Shown here in pieces: positions 1 to 64,000 of a stretch of 64,000 nucleotides of DNA. Below the pieces are notes generated by a model, which searched no databases, was not told the DNA's origin, and saw only the letters and a list, made by a program, of their open reading frames with translations. The stretch is from Mycoavidus cysteinexigens (GTDB lineage: Bacteria > Pseudomonadota > Gammaproteobacteria > Burkholderiales > Burkholderiaceae). The translations under genes and the position numbers were made by a program. Within the stretch, counting starts at the first letter, position 1, and each line of letters starts with the position of its first letter. The stretch lies in the NCBI GenBank assembly GCA_031963405.1, contig JASSUJ010000001.1, positions 1,547,802 to 1,611,801 on the forward strand. The letters are read 5' to 3'.

Positions 1-72
1 GCGTTTAGTTAAATAGGAACTCCAGCACAGCCCACTTTTGACGATGATGAACAGGCGCTTACAAAAAGAGCC

Positions 73-720
73 CTACATTTTTTTAGCGCGGATCTGCGCG
101 ATAAGAAAATCAAGCACCTGAATCGTGTTTTCAAAACTATTGGTCATCGCTGGCGAGGTCTCGTATTTCCCTTGCACAATAAGCGTCGGTACCCCATCAA
201 TTTTGTAGTCAGCGGCTAATTTGCTGTCTTGGCGCGCAGCGCTATCAGTTTTGAAAGCGTTATATTCTTCCAAAAATTTATCTTTACTAACGCCATATTG
301 CAGGAGGAAGTCGGCCTGTGCTTCTGGTGTTAGCAAATAATTTTTCTCAACCTGGATAGCTTCAAAAACTTTAGCAGATAGTTTTTTGGTTAGACCAAGT
401 GTATCAATCACATGGTAAAGCTTTTGATGCGTAATAAAGTCCTCTCGAAAAGCAACCGGCACCCGTTTAAAGACAACGTCAGCTTTTTGCTTTTTCGCCC
501 AGGCATTCACAATAGGCTCAAACGTGTAACAGTGTGGGCAGCCATACCAAAAAAATTCAGTCACCTCAATTTTGCCAGCAGGTACATTGGTCGGCCCAGC
601 CGCTGCCAAGATACGATAGTCAGTGCCGGCTTTAGGCGCTGCAGATGCAGCATAGACCACGTTTATTGCCAGTGCGAACAAAGCCAATAAAGTAAATAAT
701 GGACCGAGGATTTTTTTCAT
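73..720 (-). CDS. dsbA: Thiol:disulfide interchange protein DsbA
   Basis: 215-aa ORF with an N-terminal signal peptide (MKKILGPLFTLLALFALAINVVYA) and the thioredoxin-fold active site FFWYGCPHCYTFEP (CPHC). Confidence 0.9.
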   Translation of the reverse strand: MKKILGPLFTLLALFALAINVVYAASAAPKAGTDYRILAAAGPTNVPAGKIEVTEFFWYGCPHCYTFEPIVNAWAKKQKADVVFKRVPVAFREDFITHQKLYHVIDTLGLTKKLSAKVFEAIQVEKNYLLTPEAQADFLLQYGVSKDKFLEEYNAFKTDSAARQDSKLAADYKIDGVPTLIVQGKYETSPAMTNSFENTIQVLDFLIAQIRAKKM

Positions 721-7189: not shown

Positions 7190-7337
7190 GCTGGATAAGG
7201 TAATGTTTAACGGTTAAGGCGAGCGAGTTAAAAAATGAAAGGAAGGGCTGGGTGAATCAAGAGCAGACACGCCGATGCAGACAATACGCTAATACGGTAA
7301 GCAGGTATAACGCAGCTTCTGGTTTATTTAGCTTTTC

Positions 7338-8429
7338 CTAAAACAAGGGGCGGGGCTTGATATGGGCAAGCGCTTGAGCAAGTGCCGCGATATGTTCAGG
7401 CGTAGTGCCGCAGCAGCCGCCGGCTACGTTAAGTAGGCCGGCTTGGGCAAATTCTTTCAGCAGGCTAGCAGTGACTTCGGGTGTTTCGTCAAAGCCTGTG
7501 TCAGACATGGGGTTAGGCAAACCAGCGTTCGGGTAGCATGAGATATAGCAGTCACACAATTTGGCTAATTCAGCCTGGTAAGGTCGCATCAATGCGGCAC
7601 CGAGCGCGCAATTTAATCCAAGAATGAGCGGTTGCGCATGGCGCACTGAATTCCAAAAAGCTTCCACGGTTTGCCCGGACAAAATCCGGCCAGACGCATC
7701 AGTGACTGTGCCGGAAATCATTATGGGCAAGCGCTCGCCACTGTTTTCAAATAATTCATCAAGCGCAAATAACGCTGCCTTGGCGTTGAGTGTGTCAAAA
7801 ATTGTTTCCACTAAGAAAAGATCAACGCCGCCTTGCAAGAGAGCTTCGGCTTGCTCGTAATAGGCTGTGCGCAACACATCAAAAGTGACATTGCGTGCGC
7901 CTGGGTCGTTCACATCAGGTGAAATGCTAGCGGTTTTGGGCGTTGGACCAAGTGCGCCAGCGACAAAGCGTGGTTTGTCAGGTGTTGCGTATCGGTCGCA
8001 GGCGGCGCGGGCAAGTTGTGCGGCCACTAAATTCATTTCGGATGCTAAGTCTTCTAACTGATAATCGGCTTGTGCAATGCGCGTCGCACCAAAAGTATTG
8101 GTCTCGATAATGTCTGCGCCAGCGGCCAAATATTGTTCATGAACAGCTGTAATAAGAGCCGGCTGCGTGAGCGAAAGCAACTCATGATTGCCTTTTACTT
8201 CCGTTGATAAACCCGCAAATCTTGCTCCGCGGTATTGCTCTTCCGTTAGGCGATGGCGCTGCAGCATCGTGCCCAAGGCACCATCTAAAATCACAATGCG
8301 TTCAGCCAGCAGTGCTGCCAGCGCGCCGCCGCGTGTATAAAGTTTAGGGGAAGTAGGGGTGCTGGGCGGGGTAAAGCCAACTGTGGTTGGTTCAGCGTCT
8401 ACAGAATCGACAAAATGGCTAGCATTCAT
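7338..8429 (-). CDS. metH: Homocysteine S-methyltransferase module of split methionine synthase
   Basis: 363 aa Hcy-binding domain ([10 protein letters not shown]..., Zn-ligand region GLNCALG and [11 protein letters not shown]). It lies 148 bp upstream of, and co-oriented with, the rest of metH. Confidence 0.9.
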
Positions 8430-11627: not shown

Positions 11628-11764
11628 TACTTTATTCTCTTTTGTAAGATTGTTATATTTCTTGTCCAGCTCAAATATATTAATTGCTTTAAGCCGAGCA
11701 ACTCATCCTTAACTAAAATTTTCTATTAGTTTTACACGAGGAAAATTAGATTCTTTGCAAATCA

Positions 11765-11788
11765 CGAAGTAGCGTATGAACTCACGAA
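11765..11788 (-). promoter_or_regulatory. PIP/hrpII-type box TTCG-N16-TTCG
   Basis: The minus strand reads ttcgtgagttcatacgctacttcg (TTCGT-N15-TTCGT). It is about 138 bp upstream of the ATG at 11627 and in the gene's orientation. Confidence 0.6.
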
Positions 11789-13337: not shown

Positions 13338-13572
13338 GGCGTCCTCCTATAAAAGCGTAGATTAATTTTTTTAGGCAGCGCATGAATGCTGTTTTAAGCC
13401 AATTAGCACGGACTTAAATAAGCGTTAAATCAATCGAGAGCAAGACGGTTTGATGTAGATCGCGTGCCTATATGGCACAAAGGCATGACGCGCCCGCCCA
13501 GTTGATTCAGCATTTTCTTAAGCGGAGCTTTTTATATTTTTATACTGATTCAGTTAGATTTCTCTGAAAGCA

Positions 13573-13596
13573 CGAAATGGCAGATGCTTAAGCGAA
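13573..13596 (-). promoter_or_regulatory. PIP/hrpII-type box TTCG-N16-TTCG
   Basis: The minus strand reads ttcgcttaagcatctgccatttcg (TTCGC-N15-TTCGT), about 236 bp upstream of the ATG at 13337. Confidence 0.55.
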
Positions 13597-20802: not shown

Positions 20803-21534
20803 TTAGTATTTTGTGCCGACATGTAATGCCACGACGCCGGCTGATAAATTGTAGTACTCAACTTTATTGAATCCTGCTTGTTCCATCATCATCTTTAATT
20901 CATTTTGATCTGGATGCATGCGAATCGATTCGGCTAAATAGCGATAACTCTCTGCGTCCCCTGCAATCTTGCGCCCGAGCCAAGGCAGCACTTTAAATGA
21001 GTAAAAATCATACGCTTTGGCTAAAGGTTGATAAACCTTTGAGAATTCAAGCACAAGCAGCTTGCCGCCGTGTTTGAGCACGCGCTGCATTTCAGCGAGT
21101 GCGGCTTGCTTATGGGTCATATTGCGTAATCCAAAAGCGACTGTTACGACATCGAAGTAATGGCTAGGAAAGGCGATTTTTTCGGCGTCACACAATAGTG
21201 TGGGCACGATAAGTCCTTTATTCAGCAAGCGATCTCGTCCTACCCGCAGCATTTCTTCATTGATATCACTCAACCACACTTCACCATGCTCACCGACCTG
21301 CTTGGCAAATGCCTGCGACAGGTCGCCCGTGCCACCAGCCAAATCTAATACCTTAAAGCCCGTGCGCACGCCGGCTTGTGACACAGTGAAAGCTTTCCAT
21401 AAGCGGTGCATGCCAACTGACATGACATCGTTCATGACATCGTATTTTTTGGCCACCGAATTAAATACATCGGCTACTTTTTTAGCTTTTTCATCTTCAT
21501 CAACGCGCTGAAAGCCGAAGTGAGTTTGGTTCAT
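20803..21534 (-). CDS. ubiE: Ubiquinone/menaquinone biosynthesis C-methyltransferase UbiE
   Basis: 243 aa with THFGFQRV...[24 protein letters not shown] and the SAM motif [10 protein letters not shown]. Confidence 0.95.
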
Positions 21535-21701
21535 AAAGGTTACCTTAGCTTATCTCAGCTGTTTGCGGCAGAGCTTGCAAAAATCGCTGAATCATTGATC
21601 AGAAAAAGCCGTTCTGTGCGGCGTCATGCTTTTGCGCCACGCCTATAAATACACGGCTGTCTGGGATGGCATACCTGGCTCTAGATGGAGTCAGCTTTTC
21701 C

Positions 21702-22121: not shown

Positions 22122-22468
22122 GCGGAGTATAGATTTTAAAAAGAGGCTCAGTACGAAGAGTTGTGAGTCGGTGTTAGTGATTCTCTTTACGTTAGCTGGA
22201 GCAAAGAGGTGTTATTTATTGCCTTCTTCATTCACAAGTCTAATGTTGAGTTTCTAAGTGGGCGATAAAAATTGCATACGGATTGTAAAAGTTAGGCGTG
22301 TCATGTAGGGGAGTTCCAGCTATCTTACTTCAGTGTTTTACACGATATGCCAAATGTTGCTGGGTATATATAAATCTTGTGTAACGCATTGAGCCTAGCT
22401 ATGCAAAAACAGCTGCGTTAATTATCAGCTTAGTTTCTTCTAAGAATCTGTCTCCAGGAGATATACCA

Positions 22469-23146
22469 ATGCTCCCTATTGAAACACTGCCATCCCAGTC
22501 ATCGATCCTCACCAATCACGCTCGTAGGGTTGACCACACTCCTCATAAACTTGACGCAGCCATTCAGCCTTTGCTTCAGGAGGCCGAGAAAATACTTGAA
22601 GAACTCGGACCTGTACCTCCATTGGAGGGGTACATGAGAAAAACTCCTTCGGTGCTGGCGGATAGCTTTTTAAGCGGTGTCCAAGCAGTAGCGAAAAGGG
22701 GTGATACAACAATGTTGTACATGGCTATGTTTATACCAGTAAGTGCAGTAGTAAGTGCATTAGCAGATATTTTTTTAGCGAAAACAGAATCCAAGCTTAA
22801 CGAAAAAATCGCGCTGCTTATTCTGCTTTGTATGCTCATCCCCTCTTTTGCTCAAAATTTTGGAAGCTACACGCTGCAAAGACACAATTGGTTATCGTTG
22901 CACGATATTGCTGAAAACTTAGTTTCAACTTTAAAGCTAGCCGAGGCAGCAGCAGAAGGTGAAACACAGCAGCCATCATCTTTAGCGCGAAAGGTAATAT
23001 CAGATAAGGTCGCATTACAAGCGCTTAAGGAGCGTATAGCGGCTCCAATGCGAGCAATGACACCGGAAGACAACTTACTTATTGAGCGACTGCAAAGCCT
23101 TCTTGAACAAACAGCGCTTTTTTGCCGAAACTCGCCAATTTTTTAA
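22469..23146 (+). CDS. Orphan membrane protein with paired hydrophobic segments
   Basis: 225-aa ORF starting MLPIETLPSQSSILTNHARR. Two hydrophobic stretches (MLYMAMFIPVSAVVSALADIFL and IALLILLCMLIPSFAQNF) are separated by a short loop. The C-terminal half is helical. I recognise no family. Confidence 0.5.
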   Translation: MLPIETLPSQSSILTNHARRVDHTPHKLDAAIQPLLQEAEKILEELGPVPPLEGYMRKTPSVLADSFLSGVQAVAKRGDTTMLYMAMFIPVSAVVSALADIFLAKTESKLNEKIALLILLCMLIPSFAQNFGSYTLQRHNWLSLHDIAENLVSTLKLAEAAAEGETQQPSSLARKVISDKVALQALKERIAAPMRAMTPEDNLLIERLQSLLEQTALFCRNSPIF

Positions 23147-23257
23147 AGATGCGCGATCTATAAGTGGCAAAAATTTTTTTGCTCCGCTTTGCAGAAGAAA
23201 TGAAAATAATATAAAAGCTAAAATATTTTTTAGTATTTAATTATTTATTGTTTTATT

Positions 23258-24223
23258 TTAGACACATAATAAAAAAGAGACATCATGTCGAATATCTCTT
23301 TTTTTGCTGACTGACTCTTGATTAATTGCCTTAGAAAATTTATCAATAACTTCTATTGTCGTTCCTTCTTCTTGTGGAAGCTTTTCTGCCTCTTCTAAAG
23401 TGGTTTTCGCTTTTTTTATTCTTTTTCTAGGTTCATCTGCGAAATTATCAAATTTTTCGTGTGGAATTGAGAAAGCGTTAGTGCCTAGCAAAAATTGTTT
23501 CGCCCTACCTTTTGATGTGCCCTCGGCGTGTAAACGTGTTTCTGCCTCTTGGTGAGTAAGAAATTCATTTTCTACGAGAAGTTTTAGCTCTTCTGCATTT
23601 CTCTTAAGTGCACCACGTGATCCTGCATTCGCACCCGTTAAATATCGTTTAACCGTGCTCTTCGCTGCGCCCTTTTCTTGTAAAAGTTTTTCTGCCTCTT
23701 TACGAGTAAGGTGGCCGTTTTCTATAAGAGGTCTAAGCTCTTTTGCATACTTCTTAAATTCGCCAGTTGGGCTTGGGTTTGTGCCAGGGGACATATATTT
23801 TTTAGCCGTATCTTTTGCAGCACCCTTCGCTTGTAAATGCTTTTCTGCCTCTTTACGGGTAAGGATGCCATTTTCTACGAGAGGTCTAAGCTTTGCTGCA
23901 TATCCCCTAAGTTTTCCCCATGAGATTGTGCTCATATCCATAAAATACTGCTGAGCTGCACCCTGCGCTATGTCTTTGACGGGTAAATATTCTTGCCCCC
24001 CTTGCTCAGTTATACCTTCGCTTCTTATAGAGGAGCTACAGAGCCTCTGCATATTTCCTTGATTAAGGTATGTCTCTGCTGTCAGTAGATTATTACGGCC
24101 AGGAGATACAACGTCGTCCAACGGCGTATGTAGAGGTTCGCTAACTTCGTGTGCGGATTTATTAAGTGCTGCTGTAACGCTTGAGGTAGGTTGAATCGTA
24201 TTGCTTAAGGTTATTGCTGTCAT
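23258..24223 (-). CDS. Orphan tandem-repeat protein (about 4 x 51 aa), candidate secreted effector
   Basis: 321 aa starting MTAITLSNTIQPTSSVTAAL. Repeats such as YAAKLRPLVENGILTRKEAEKHLQAKGAAKDTAKKY / YAKELRPLIENGHLTRKEAEKLLQEKGAAKSTVKRY / NAEELKLLVENEFLTHQEAETRLHAEGTSKGRAKQF, plus a degenerate fourth, are also visible as DNA similarity over 23333-23917. A perfect PIP/hrpII box lies 74 bp upstream. Confidence 0.65.
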   Translation of the reverse strand: MTAITLSNTIQPTSSVTAALNKSAHEVSEPLHTPLDDVVSPGRNNLLTAETYLNQGNMQRLCSSSIRSEGITEQGGQEYLPVKDIAQGAAQQYFMDMSTISWGKLRGYAAKLRPLVENGILTRKEAEKHLQAKGAAKDTAKKYMSPGTNPSPTGEFKKYAKELRPLIENGHLTRKEAEKLLQEKGAAKSTVKRYLTGANAGSRGALKRNAEELKLLVENEFLTHQEAETRLHAEGTSKGRAKQFLLGTNAFSIPHEKFDNFADEPRKRIKKAKTTLEEAEKLPQEEGTTIEVIDKFSKAINQESVSKKRDIRHDVSFLLCV

Positions 24224-24296
24224 GGGGGGGTATTTCGCGCTTTATTTTTCTATCCAAAAGTTTATGGGCAGCGATACCCATAAACGTAATAAATAG

Positions 24297-24320
24297 CGAA
24301 TATTTTTGCGTTAAAACGAA
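24297..24320 (-). promoter_or_regulatory. PIP/hrpII-type box TTCG-N16-TTCG
   Basis: The minus strand reads ttcgttttaacgcaaaaatattcg (TTCGT-N15-TTCGC), about 74 bp upstream of the ATG at 24223. Confidence 0.6.
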
Positions 24321-24500
24321 GCGATAGCTTTTTTAATTTTTCTGTACTTTCGACTGTTACAAAAAAATTATTTAAATAGGAATAAACAATTGAGATAAAT
24401 ATCAGTCGTTTAGGGAAATGCTGAATCAATCCCTATTTGTCTTCCTAAAAGCAAGAAGGCCGATTAGGTGGGCGCGCGAGAATTATTCGGCTTATGCAAT

Positions 24501-34264: not shown

Positions 34265-35089
34265 ATGACTCTCGCCCACTCCCCGCTTGGTAAAACTGTT
34301 GAGCCAAGTACCCACTATGATCCCACTTTGCTATTCCCCATCGAGCGGCAGCATGCGCGTGATGAAATCGGGGTGCCTACGCCTTTGCCTTTTTTAGGCG
34401 TGGATATTTGGAATGCCTATGAATTGTCATGGCTCGACTTGCGCGGTAAGCCGCATATCGCATTGGCGCAAGTCATGGTGCCGGCAGACTCGCCAAACTT
34501 AGTTGAATCAAAGTCGTTCAAACTTTATTTGGGTTCATTTGCACAGACTCAAATTGCCTCAAGCGAGGCGTTGCGCGAGACCATTCGCCAAGATTTATCT
34601 AAGCTATGCGGCGTTCAAGTCACGGTGACGCTCACTCTTCCTTACGAGTTCGGGCAGTTGCAAGTGCAAGAGCTGGATGGATTATTACTGGACCGGCTTG
34701 AGCTTGATGCGGATGTGTACCACCCTTCAACAGCTCTGCTTAAAGCAGACCTCGAAGCGGCGCCTATCGAGGAAACGCTGGTTTCCAATTTACTCAAATC
34801 AAACTGCCCGGTAACTGGCCAGCCAGATTGGGGGAGTGTGCAGATTCGTTATGTAGGGCCACCGATTGAGCATGCTGGGTTATTGCGTTATCTCATCTCG
34901 TATCGTCTGCATACCGGATTTCATGAGCAGTGTGTTGAGCGTATCTTTATGGACATTTCGCGTATTTGCCGACCGCTTAAGTTAGCAGTCTATGCGCGTT
35001 ATACGCGCCGAGGCGGGTTGGATATCAACCCGTTTAGAGCGAACTTTAACGTATCACCGCCAGATAATTTACGTACTGCTCGACAATAA
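34265..35089 (+). CDS. queF: NADPH-dependent 7-cyano-7-deazaguanine reductase (two-domain type)
   Basis: 274 aa with [12 protein letters not shown] and the catalytic Cys region [19 protein letters not shown]...[15 protein letters not shown]. Confidence 0.9.
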
Positions 35090-35192
35090 AGGAAATGCTG
35101 GATAAATCGTGAGTCAGGAAGGTTGATGCAGGCAGTACAAATGCACGGCAATTTGGCTTGGCACTGTTCTCGGTTGATTCAGTGCTTCCTAC
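35089..35192. repeat. Short palindromic element, family C
   Basis: aaggaaatgctggataaatcgtgag ... ggttgattcagtgcttcct starts at the last base of the queF stop codon (35087-35089). Confidence 0.5.
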
Positions 35193-45602: not shown

Positions 45603-45763
45603 ATCTATGATTATCCGCTCAGGGTTTACCTTCTTCGCTAGCTCAATAAACCGTTCCTTGCTTCACGTAGCTTGACGGTAGTTGGAAGATAGTCTGGAAT
45701 CTTTGAAATAAAATGAGTTCTAGTAAAGTAAGGCAATCGTTCAAATGCTTTCGTAGGGTGATA

Positions 45764-45787
45764 CGAAATTTTGCTTGAGCACGCGAA
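45764..45787 (-). promoter_or_regulatory. PIP/hrpII-type box TTCG-N16-TTCG
   Basis: The minus strand reads ttcgcgtgctcaagcaaaatttcg (TTCGC-N15-TTCGT), about 162 bp upstream of the ankyrin gene ATG at 45602. Confidence 0.55.
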
Positions 45788-52589: not shown

Positions 52590-52746
52590 AGAGACGGAGT
52601 TAGGGAGAGTCTGCATAAGCCGGCTGGCAAGGAATGCCTTTGGCTAGTACACCAAAAATATGGCAAGGATGCATGACGCCGCCAGCCGGCTTATGCGGAT
52701 CTTCCTTAGGCGATTAACTGCGTAGCGCACTGCCAGCTTGAGTCGT

Positions 52747-63631: not shown

Positions 63632-64000
63632 CTTTTATAAGAGAGCCTTCCTAAATTGGATGGTGGCGCCATGCTTCACGGCCAGTATATTTAGTACTGT
63701 CTGCGTCGGCATGCCTTGCCTTCCGACTTATGCAGACCTACCCAAAGATTGAGCGCACAAGGGGATAACCGTTCGCCTCATCCAAAACTCGCGTAGCTGC
63801 ATCATATGCTCGCTAAGCTAGCATTAAAAGCGACCGAGAATGAAGCAGGCCAAAGCGCCTATATATTTCGGAAGAATCCGAAAGCGCTCTATTTTGACTC
63901 AGGTTGCATTCAACTTTCTGACTACGTGCTAGCTTCTTCCTTCTGCTTGCTGCGCGTGCTAGCGCGGTTATTGCCATCGATTGCAGCAATTAATTCATTT

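Follow-up and report, generated by a model that had tools for sequence, protein, structure and literature searches.

In the genome (2.44 Mb) of a Mycoavidus, a fungus-dwelling relative of Burkholderia, an orphan reading frame of 321 codons, here called ORF321, lies behind a PIP/hrpII box, the promoter element of Hrp2-type T3SS genes. This raises the question of whether it is a genuine gene of the T3SS regulon, and if so whether its repetitive product is a protein that the bacterium delivers into its host. The DNA analysed was a window of 64 kb, i.e., the whole stretch in which the locus was found, and the features that bear on the question are collected in Table 1. The original prediction had described the frame as a protein of approximately 50-aa tandem repeats of no familiar class, convergent with a second orphan and placed between a DUF971 gene and a HIT gene. 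The frame, its orphan neighbour and the identities of the flanking genes (DUF971 is now GBBH-like_N) were all confirmed.

Table 1. Features of ORF321 and its surroundings (positions are those of the window).
Feature	Residues	Position	Strand	Remarks
Lower-GC islet, 2.4 kb, with ORF225 and ORF321		22122..24500	.	Between DUF971/GBBH-like_N and HIT genes
ORF225, convergent orphan	225 aa	22469..23146	+	Two adjacent hydrophobic helices; lacks a PIP box of its own
ORF321 CDS, orphan candidate T3SS effector	321 aa + stop	23258..24223	-	
Degenerate unit 4	256-307	23303..23458	-	Unit HMM 7.9 bits; 43-nt core retained; low pLDDT
Basic cluster PRKRIKKAK	265-273	23405..23431	-	Resembles monopartite nuclear localisation signal; sequence pattern only
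Repeat unit 3	206-255	23459..23608	-	Three predicted helices
Repeat unit 2	156-205	23609..23758	-	Three predicted helices
Repeat unit 1	105-155	23759..23911	-	Three predicted helices
Degenerate unit 0	~55-104	23912..24061	-	Weak similarity to units 1-3
Diverged full-length copy of ~109-bp palindromic MITE-like element	~27-63	24037..24144	.	In frame
Codons 1-26 (MTAITLSNTIQPTSSVTAALNKSAHE)	1-26	24146..24223	-	Ser/Thr-rich, T3SS-export-signal-like; acid-free before E26
-10-like hexamer TAAACT (YANNNT)		24259..24264	-	31 nt after PIP box
Terminator-like hairpin		24260..24285	-	11-bp stem then TTTT; overlaps -10; between box and ATG
PIP/hrpII box TTCGT-N15-TTCGC		24296..24320	-	Exact consensus match; presumed HrpB binding site

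An open frame of 321 codons is expected by chance only ∼0.003 times in a genome of the same DNA composition. Across the repeat units dN/dS was 0.33-0.65, and synonymous differences between units 1 and 2 outnumbered nonsynonymous ones (Fisher p = 0.004). Pieces of ORF321 at 97-98% identity were found in two soil metagenomes, and a piece of 88% identity in a sequencing run containing a related strain. Together with repeat spacings that are all multiples of three, the excess of synonymous over nonsynonymous change, the chance figure for the frame and the environmental pieces argue that ORF321 is a real protein coding gene. A search for RNA-seq runs containing ORF321 found none. Of the 12 differences listed for the fragment from the related strain, 10 were nonsynonymous and 2 synonymous, an excess that would fit either diversifying selection or weak constraint.

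The islet is missing from the two closest congeners (G006 and G001), in which the DUF971 gene directly follows the HIT gene. No family match was obtained for ORF225; a role as a T3SS chaperone was considered and rejected on sequence, given its 225 aa, two hydrophobic helices and lack of a family match.

The box upstream of ORF321, TTCGTTTTAACGCAAAAATATTCGC, is an exact match to the PIP consensus as originally predicted, although the ATG begins 72 nt past its end and not 74. The window contains four PIP boxes where 1.6 would be expected, a count that is not significant, being attained in 7 of 100 shuffles; the weight of the box comes from enrichment across the genome rather than from the window count. 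Boxes of the form TTCGB-N15-TTCGB number 73 genome-wide, compared with 18-55 at other spacings. When a YANNNT hexamer at +30 to +32 was also required, 38 full promoters were found, that of ORF321 among them; control spacings gave 0-6 and a reversed-pattern control gave 8, so that roughly 2-6 of the 38 would be expected by chance. Over all N15 boxes, the hexamer offsets peak sharply at 30 and 31, with 20 and 14 boxes, respectively, compared with 1-5 at each of the others. Full promoters stand before SctU (hrcU), HrpB1, a NEL E3 ligase and two ankyrin-repeat proteins. Distances of 63-105 nt between box and ATG recur among the PIP-preceded ORFs, at least seven others of which have their ATG 70-74 nt from the box, as ORF321 does. 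Hence the PIP box of ORF321 is very likely functional, as judged from its sequence, geometry and company.

The genome also encodes an Hrp2-type T3SS, with two SctV genes, and a candidate regulator. A 481-aa AraC-type protein aligns over 99% of its length to Ralstonia HrpB (33% identity, E = 8e-70) and shares 36% identity with Xanthomonas HrpX and 40.6% with the regulator within the Mycetohabitans hrp cluster; these alignments identify it as a full-length HrpB/HrpX orthologue. The literature open to searching held nothing on a Mycoavidus PIP regulon. This regulon also holds apparently metabolic genes (a CrtI-like protein, a polyprenyl synthase and a dehydrogenase, as judged by eye), and a PIP box alone is therefore no proof of an effector. 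Between the box and the ATG of ORF321 lies a terminator-like hairpin that may insulate the gene against read-through from the HIT gene, a role that we only infer because such hairpins are in no excess over chance (1 found, versus 2.3 in shuffles).

Signals for T3SS export, as known from Hop and Rip effectors, are Ser-rich, free of acidic residues over the first ∼12 positions, aliphatic at position 3 or 4, and disordered. The N-terminus of ORF321 conforms to this rule in both sequence and predicted disorder. Its first 50 residues are 12% Ser and 26% Ser plus Thr, no Asp or Glu occurs before residue 26, Ile occupies position 4, and residues 1-98 are predicted to be disordered (pLDDT <50). Only 1.5% of background ORFs combine at least 26% Ser plus Thr in the first 50 residues with an absence of Asp and Glu from the first 25.

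Directly behind this segment, a palindromic MITE-like element is read in frame within ORF321, which is a new observation. The copy matches positions 2-109 of the element model (nhmmer, E = 8e-14) and spans 108 nt, a multiple of three. It agrees with the consensus at 75 of 108 bases, and carries a decayed hairpin (z = -0.62; the consensus hairpin is at -70.7 kcal/mol). Both BLAST and phmmer revealed dispersed copies elsewhere in the genome, in a family of ∼403 loci, and copies are also read in frame inside other long ORFs. Weak matches to the N-terminal region at other places in the genome had raised the possibility of a shared effector N-domain; this was rejected, as they are translations of the dispersed element.

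The anticipated tandem units of roughly 50 aa are borne out as three clear units (aa 105-255) with one degenerate unit on either side. Units 1-3 are 42-60% identical in protein and 63-71% in DNA, and score ∼100 bits each with the unit HMM. Unit 4 is 24% identical to unit 1, while unit 0 (14% identity) went undetected by the HMM. Repetition at the DNA level, also part of the original prediction, was recovered with a gap-free repeat finder as a 134-nt repeat in three copies (23492-23928, spacings of 150 and 153 nt) and a 43-nt core in four (23352-23853, spacings of 156, 150 and 153 nt). Tandem Repeats Finder reported no repeats in the ORF321 DNA because the copies are too diverged. Units 1-3 are strongly basic, with a pI of 9.96 and a net charge of +12.

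As the original prediction supposed, the units are modular and helical: in a model of the three clear units, each is predicted to form three helices of 16, 10 and 8 residues (mean pLDDT 80.6). All models were built without an alignment and have pTM values of 0.31-0.45, making the packing between units unreliable. Foldseek comparison of the full-length and 3-unit models with PDB and BFVD, one of the checks originally proposed, gave no match with E < 0.1. The top neighbours were RecX (3d5l_A, 3dfg) in PDB and phage Ltp-type lipoproteins, all non-significant (E 0.1-2.5, TM 0.17-0.34). Even RecX, the best PDB match, falls short of significant similarity (E = 1.4-2.5, TM 0.27-0.34), and ORF321 has no Pfam match to it by sequence. 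HTH proteins among the neighbours all had E > 1, and the HTH_31 profile matches weakly (E = 0.021; 15.6 bits, the cut-off being 27).

Sequence searches likewise placed the repeat outside every curated family. No ANK, TPR, LRR, PPR, Sel1 or TAL repeat was detected by Pfam at E ≤ 10, in agreement with the exclusion of these classes in the original prediction. Whether the query was the complete protein, the 3-unit piece or the unit profile, searches of Pfam, NCBIfam, PHROGs and PDB sequences returned only sub-threshold noise (CARD, PML_C, TMP_3, HTH_31, KIN17), and these and the Foldseek searches support the claim of a novel repeat. No homologue was found by a word-indexed search of 5.8 billion clustered proteins, in 40 relatives, by a unit-profile search of 120 family genomes, or in genome contigs and JGI metagenome contigs. 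ORF321 is absent in six congeners, and the described effector families, including Rip, Xop and Hop, hold no homologue in Pfam, NCBIfam, PDB or the protein sets searched. Nor did paralogues with other repeat numbers, for which the original prediction had suggested looking, come to light in this genome, where the unit HMM with filters off detects ORF321 alone. A 177-aa PIP-preceded ORF at C1:275 kb, similar by eye, was linked neither by the unit HMM nor by an all-against-all BLAST of the PIP-preceded ORFs.

The sole match in a full HMMER search of 1.84 billion representatives was a 335-aa protein (P0003; E = 5e-5) with a Sec signal and four 46-aa units (IREQVENGTLTAEQAQEQLQGLG), from a Firmicutes metagenome-assembled genome. 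The units of the two proteins align with 79% probability over 33 columns (hhalign), and share a core in helices 1-2, (I/L)R..VENG.LT.E.A...LQ..G. In Pfam, P0003 exceeds the thresholds of HTH_32 and of SHOCT-like_DUF2089-C (36.1 bits, the cut-off being 27), and it touches DUF2680. It may be regarded as one marginal remote relative of ORF321.

On balance, we favour the interpretation that ORF321 belongs to the HrpB regulon as a lineage-specific gene and encodes a substrate for the Hrp2-type T3SS of this Mycoavidus endosymbiont, and hold it to be probable though by no means secure. Its position behind a genuine-looking promoter of the T3SS regulon is what makes an injected effector the probable product. 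The same regulon also includes non-effector genes, and the protein might instead be HrpB-regulated but not translocated, acting inside or on the cell that makes it, perhaps as a regulator or an accessory factor composed of tandem HTH-like modules. The HTH-like pattern of the units and their weak HTH_31 match would suit such a role, as would the bacterial and phage origin of the best, non-significant fold neighbours, themselves tandem three-helix proteins. We nevertheless think it unlikely: no HTH family rises above threshold, a disordered, Ser/Thr-rich stretch of 100 residues at the N-terminus is typical of T3SS substrates rather than cytoplasmic regulators, and a fast-evolving orphan in an islet is a better fit to host-facing proteins. 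There is also the concern that ORF321 is a young or decaying gene without maintained function, its PIP match being fortuitous or a relic. An orphan of a single genome with a mobile element in its 5′ part, degenerate terminal repeats and a 10:2 ratio of nonsynonymous to synonymous differences in a related strain could be explained in this way. We give this reading rather low credence, since chance accounts for few of the full PIP promoters, the frame is unbroken over 321 codons of AT-rich DNA, synonymous differences predominate between the units, and the gene has been kept in no fewer than two or three strains, environmental or related.

Two further alternatives concern the start of the protein and the nature of its repeats. 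The ATG is preceded by no Shine-Dalgarno sequence (GAAATACCCCCCCATG), in contrast to most other PIP-preceded ORFs, whereas AAGGA directly precedes M58, whose ATG lies in the terminal inverted repeat of the MITE. Translation from M58, or from M95/M97, would yield a product without the putative export signal and leave the MITE in a long 5′ UTR. Many copies of the element do lie at the very 5′ end of stop-to-stop frames, ahead of real starts, and by rough estimate a 36-codon element would be open in a given frame by chance in ∼10-18% of cases. Against this, the spacing of 72 nt between box and ATG matches the modal geometry of other PIP genes, at least one further PIP-preceded ORF (at C1:14115) likewise lacks a Shine-Dalgarno sequence, the frame is open from the ATG at 24223 through the MITE, and its first 26 residues are effector-like in composition; a downstream start thus appears improbable. 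Least convincing to us, and very unlikely, is the possibility that the repeats are divergent SHOCT, SHOCT-like or DUF2680-type hairpins that serve oligomerisation and bind no host target. It draws on P0003, as the only match among the representatives, from the hhalign result and from the families whose cut-offs that protein passes or approaches. ORF321, however, matches none of the SHOCT, SHOCT-like or DUF2680 models at E ≤ 10, and its third helix and linker have no counterpart in P0003. The likeness, which is confined to helices 1-2 and rich in Glu, Gln and Leu, may therefore reflect compositional bias, and P0003 is of low specificity, as it matches many unrelated Pfam families.

If ORF321 is indeed a T3SS substrate, its sequence, promoter geometry and the genome-wide enrichment suggest that HrpB would bind the PIP box at 24296-24320, with transcription starting a few bases past TAAACT, at about 24252. 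Translation would begin at the ATG at 24223, a start supported by the recurrent spacing of box and ATG, in a frame that is observed directly. The disordered, Ser/Thr-rich and acid-free N-terminus would then act as the export signal, behind which the old MITE insertion adds 37 residues in frame without breaking it. Once in the fungus, a basic array of predicted three-helix modules of ∼50 aa, each presumably folding independently and joined to the next by Gly/Pro/Asn linkers, could bind a host macromolecule in a multivalent manner. This scaffold reading is drawn from architecture. A pI of ∼10, the HTH-like turn of helix 2, Gly and helix 3, and the NLS-like PRKRIKKAK lead us to lean, speculatively, towards a target that is either nucleic acid or a protein of repetitive or oligomeric structure. 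A bolder version, which we consider improbable, would make ORF321 the founder of a class of modular nucleic-acid-binding effectors that the Hrp2 T3SS injects and that go to the fungal nucleus; there, each HTH-like three-helix module would read DNA or RNA, and the protein would be a functional analogue of TALE/Bat proteins on another fold, diversifying rapidly between Mycoavidus strains.

The promoter has close counterparts in the PIP/hrpII-regulated effector genes of Xanthomonas (HrpX) and Ralstonia (HrpB), which have an identical cis element with a -10 YANNNT 30-32 bp downstream and an orthologous AraC-type activator. As in those regulons, the Mycoavidus boxes also stand before hrcU and hrpB1 of an Hrp2-type cluster, and the effector genes are similarly dispersed in low-GC islets. 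Unlike them, ORF321 belongs to a bacterium that lives within a fungus, has no Rip, Xop or Hop homologue, and is a candidate regulon member and T3SS substrate. The insertion of the palindromic element is reminiscent of the Rickettsia palindromic elements (RPE), which insert in frame into protein-coding genes. Both are dispersed palindromes (∼109 bp in Mycoavidus) within ORFs of a reduced-genome intracellular bacterium, but the lineages are unrelated and the likeness is one of these general features, not of sequence.

Among the close counterparts of the protein itself are TAL effectors and the Bat/BurrH TALE-likes of Mycetohabitans, which are also tandem-repeat helical proteins and candidate T3SS cargo of an endofungal member of the Burkholderiaceae (PMC11261895). 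Like ORF321, they are built of repeat modules whose terminal copies are degenerate, and they too combine a basic repeat region with a cluster resembling an NLS. The ORF321 unit differs in its period (50-51 aa with three helices, compared with 33-35 aa and two helices), and the array comprises only 3-5 units, lacks the TALE-type hypervariable residue pair and has no sequence or Pfam similarity to these proteins. The unit size and three-helix topology predicted for ORF321 also recur in RecX, with its three tandem repeats of ∼50 aa and three helices each, and in the phage Ltp-type ‘host cell surface-exposed lipoproteins’, which consist of HTH-like domains of three helices in tandem; the scores are non-significant, however, the sequences show no similarity and the biological setting is another. 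SHOCT, SHOCT-like and DUF2680 hairpins have the core of helices 1-2 in common with ORF321 by way of P0003, from which ORF321 differs in that P0003 is a Sec-signal protein of Firmicutes; no Pfam model of these hairpins is reached by ORF321, which has the additional third helix.

To our knowledge, the effectors of endofungal bacteria are almost unknown. In Mycetohabitans, the TAL-like family comprises the sole effectors described as secreted (PMC11261895). The present analysis offers a concrete, predicted HrpB regulon of about 35 promoters in the Mycoavidus genome, a protein within it whose repeat type lacks any family, and a case in which a palindromic mobile element has been taken up in frame just after a presumed secretion signal. 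Should ORF321 prove to be translocated, its small independent three-helix modules would make a tractable system, one that could reveal how a symbiont manipulates its Mortierella-type host and might provide a new modular binding scaffold.

The original prediction described a tandem-repeat protein, an observation that was confirmed. The gene in question (ORF321) is a 321-codon open frame; at this DNA composition, chance would yield about 0.003 such frames per genome. Three clear tandem units, 51, 50 and 50 aa long, span residues 105-255 (LRGYAAKLRPLVENGILTRKEAEKHLQAKGAAKDTAKKYMSPGTNPSPTGE; FKKYAKELRPLIENGHLTRKEAEKLLQEKGAAKSTVKRYLTGANAGSRGA; LKRNAEELKLLVENEFLTHQEAETRLHAEGTSKGRAKQFLLGTNAFSIPH); they share 42-60% identity in protein and 63-71% in DNA and are followed by a degenerate fourth. 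The repetition was also visible in the DNA, as claimed, where a 134-nt stretch is present in three copies, 150 and 153 nt apart, and a 43-nt core is occurring four times at spacings of 156, 150 and 153 nt, every one a multiple of three; Tandem Repeats Finder missed the array. Synonymous differences between the units exceed nonsynonymous ones (dN/dS 0.33-0.65; Fisher p=0.004 for the synonymous excess between units 1 and 2), indicating past protein-level constraint on the frame.

Features of the ORF321 islet, the window and the source genome (window positions unless prefixed C1, the genome's own contig, or given in Mb)
Feature	Position	Strand	Remarks
Lineage-specific islet	~22122-24500		2.4 kb; lower GC; holds ORF225 and ORF321
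ORF225	22469-23146	+	second islet orphan
ORF321	23258-24223	-	open frame, 321 codons
ORF321 unit 0	aa ~55-104	-	before unit 1; weaker still than unit 4
ORF321 unit 4	aa 256-307	-	degenerate
Terminator-like hairpin, then T-run	24260-24285	-	overlaps predicted -10 of ORF321 PIP promoter
ORF321 PIP/hrpII box	24296-24320	-
Further PIP boxes	11764-11788, 13572-13596	-	without YANNNT at +30 to +32
Further PIP box	45763-45787	-	YANNNT at +32; 5' of 180-aa ankyrin-repeat ORF
Palindromic element copies	7239-7341, 24037-24144, 35089-35190, 52601-52708, 63640-63742
HrpB/HrpX orthologue, 481 aa	G000:C1:1015271-1016716 (locus L011 298-1743)
SctV genes	1.144 Mb and 2.067 Mb		NCBIfam
Example regulon promoters	C1:2069646-2069869, C1:484907, C1:1351063-1355998, C1:1218290

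The claim that the repeat lies outside the known classes held, as no curated family matched ORF321. No homologue was found among 5.8 billion clustered proteins, in the genomes of six congeners and 34 further relatives, in the genome_contigs or JGI metagenome contigs, or, using the unit profile, in 120 family genomes. When 1.84 billion representatives were scanned in full with HMMER, one match emerged (E=5e-5), P0003. This protein of 335 aa, encoded in a Pelotomaculum-like metagenome-assembled genome, has a signal peptide and carries four units of 46 aa each (...IREQVENGTLTAEQAQEQLQGLG...).

DUF971 directly follows the HIT gene in the two closest congeners, whose HIT proteins are 78-79% identical, and the DNA separating the two genes here is therefore a lineage-specific islet. 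Its other orphan, ORF225, encodes two adjacent hydrophobic helices; it has neither a family match nor a PIP box, and is alone in its own protein cluster. Short contigs from two soil metagenomes contain ORF321 pieces 97-98% identical, part of the box included, with three synonymous and two nonsynonymous changes. In a related strain present in sequencing run X5, identity is 96-99.6% for the housekeeping flanks, 93-94% for the islet's intergenic DNA and just 88% for an ORF321 piece (23809-23959, set against 21035-21588), with 10 of the 12 listed differences nonsynonymous and two synonymous. The gene is therefore present beyond this assembly and fast-evolving, which is compatible with diversifying selection or relaxed constraint.

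The predicted box upstream of ORF321 is present, at 72 nt from the ATG rather than the 74 proposed, and forms a full promoter (TTCGTTTTAACGCAAAAATATTCGC, TAAACT at +31), defined as a box plus a Xanthomonas-type -10, YANNNT at +30 to +32. The PIP box count in the 64-kb window is by itself not significant. Across the genome, a single contig of 2,444,062 bp and 46.6% GC, TTCGB-N15-TTCGB occurs at 73 sites, where control spacings between 8 and 23 nt yield 18-55, and full promoters number 38, against 0-6 at control spacings and 8 for the reversed pattern, with sharp peaks of YANNNT at offsets 30 and 31. Because of these control counts, the ORF321 promoter, judged on its sequence, is very probably genuine. 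The 38 are mostly intergenic and lie 42-308 nt 5' of ORF starts; distances of about 63-105 nt form a clear group. Behind them lie SctU (Pfam E 2e-100) and HrpB1 (6e-25), at the divergent promoters adjoining one SctV gene, as well as an E3 ligase with a NEL domain (8e-30), two proteins with ankyrin repeats and many orphans with Ser-rich N-termini; such apparatus and effector-type genes indicate that the motif defines a genuine HrpB regulon. One cluster holds four consecutive orphan genes, each PIP-driven, and a 603-aa PIP-driven ORF at G000:C1 ~1625.8 kb (+) shows by eye a C-X5-R-like phosphatase signature (CDGGMGRT), with no Pfam match at E<=0.001. Fewer sites were counted in congeners, 14-31 compared with 14-17 for controls.

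Two SctV/HrcV proteins clear the NCBIfam cut-off in this genome, which has only two AraC-type proteins. One of the latter, 481 aa long, can be aligned across 99% of its length to Ralstonia HrpB (33% identity, E 8e-70), Xanthomonas HrpX (36%) and the regulator within the Mycetohabitans rhizoxinica hrp cluster (40.6%); its gene is unlinked to both T3SS clusters. HrpB regulation of ORF321 has strong backing in sequence statistics. The hairpin between box and gene, whose occurrence is not above chance, could block read-through from the HIT gene.

The N-terminus is effector-like: residues 1-26 (MTAITLSNTIQPTSSVTAALNKSAHE) contain no acidic residue ahead of E26, and S+T make up 26% of the first 50, a combination found in 1.5% of long background ORFs. 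Weak 'N-terminal paralogues' across the genome were rejected as translations of a dispersed repeat. Iterated nhmmer defined this as a palindromic, MITE-like element of ~109 bp (consensus TTAAGGAAGCTCTGCATAACCCC...GGGGTTATGCAGAGCTTCCTTAA; consensus hairpin -70.7 kcal/mol) at 403 loci in the 2.44-Mb genome, 255 of them near full length. The ORF321 copy is full-length yet diverged (75/108 bases as in the consensus), its hairpin has decayed (z=-0.62), and it encodes residues ~27-63 in frame, directly after the putative export signal. About 30 full-length copies lie wholly within stop-to-stop frames of at least 200 aa, about 10 of them mid-ORF (e.g., C1:672291 in a 1229-aa frame). Rickettsia palindromic elements are inserted in frame, and the Mycoavidus copies inside long frames may be analogous.

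AlphaFold2 models, made without an alignment, agree with the modular helical repeats proposed: residues 1-98 are predicted disordered and each unit is predicted to form three helices of ~16, 10 and 8 residues (unit pLDDT 70-87 in the full model; mean 80.6 for residues 100-255 modelled alone). Low pTM (0.31-0.45), together with the Gly/Pro/Asn linkers, suggests a beads-on-a-string arrangement, not a rigid solenoid. Foldseek returned nothing significant with these models; the nearest architectures, tandem three-helix like ORF321, were RecX in the PDB (E 1.4-2.5) and phage Ltp-type lipoproteins in BFVD (E 0.1-0.2). Units 1-3 are basic (pI 9.96, net charge +12), unit 4 contains a nuclear localisation signal-like PRKRIKKAK, and the stretch from helix 2 through a turn with Gly to helix 3 (TRKEAEKHLQ-AKGA-AKDTAKKY) looks helix-turn-helix-like by eye, with no HTH profile above threshold (best HTH_31, E=0.021).

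Several alternatives bear on these features. The repeats could be members of a SHOCT/DUF2680-like hairpin family; P0003 exceeds the Pfam cut-offs for HTH_32 and SHOCT-like_DUF2089-C, whereas ORF321 does not, and the likeness between them is confined to helices 1-2 (hhalign 79% over 33 columns), possibly a remote or convergent helical-hairpin motif, not family membership. Translation could instead start downstream, at M58 or further on, since the M58 ATG belongs to the MITE inverted repeat and the ATG at 24223 lacks a Shine-Dalgarno sequence; at least seven other regulon members have their ATG 70-74 nt past the box. A young or decaying gene would be another account, to be set beside both the divergence in X5 and the synonymous excess between units. 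Finally, ORF321 may be HrpB-regulated and not translocated. Its secretion is inferred from N-terminal features and genomic context.

On balance, we consider it rather probable that ORF321 is a lineage-specific, HrpB-controlled T3SS effector whose small three-helix modules, together a basic array, would have a host macromolecule as their ligand; nucleic acid is our preferred, speculative guess. As a tandem-repeat effector candidate behind a PIP box, it is of a known kind; the repeat type is new, and the in-frame MITE is unusual.
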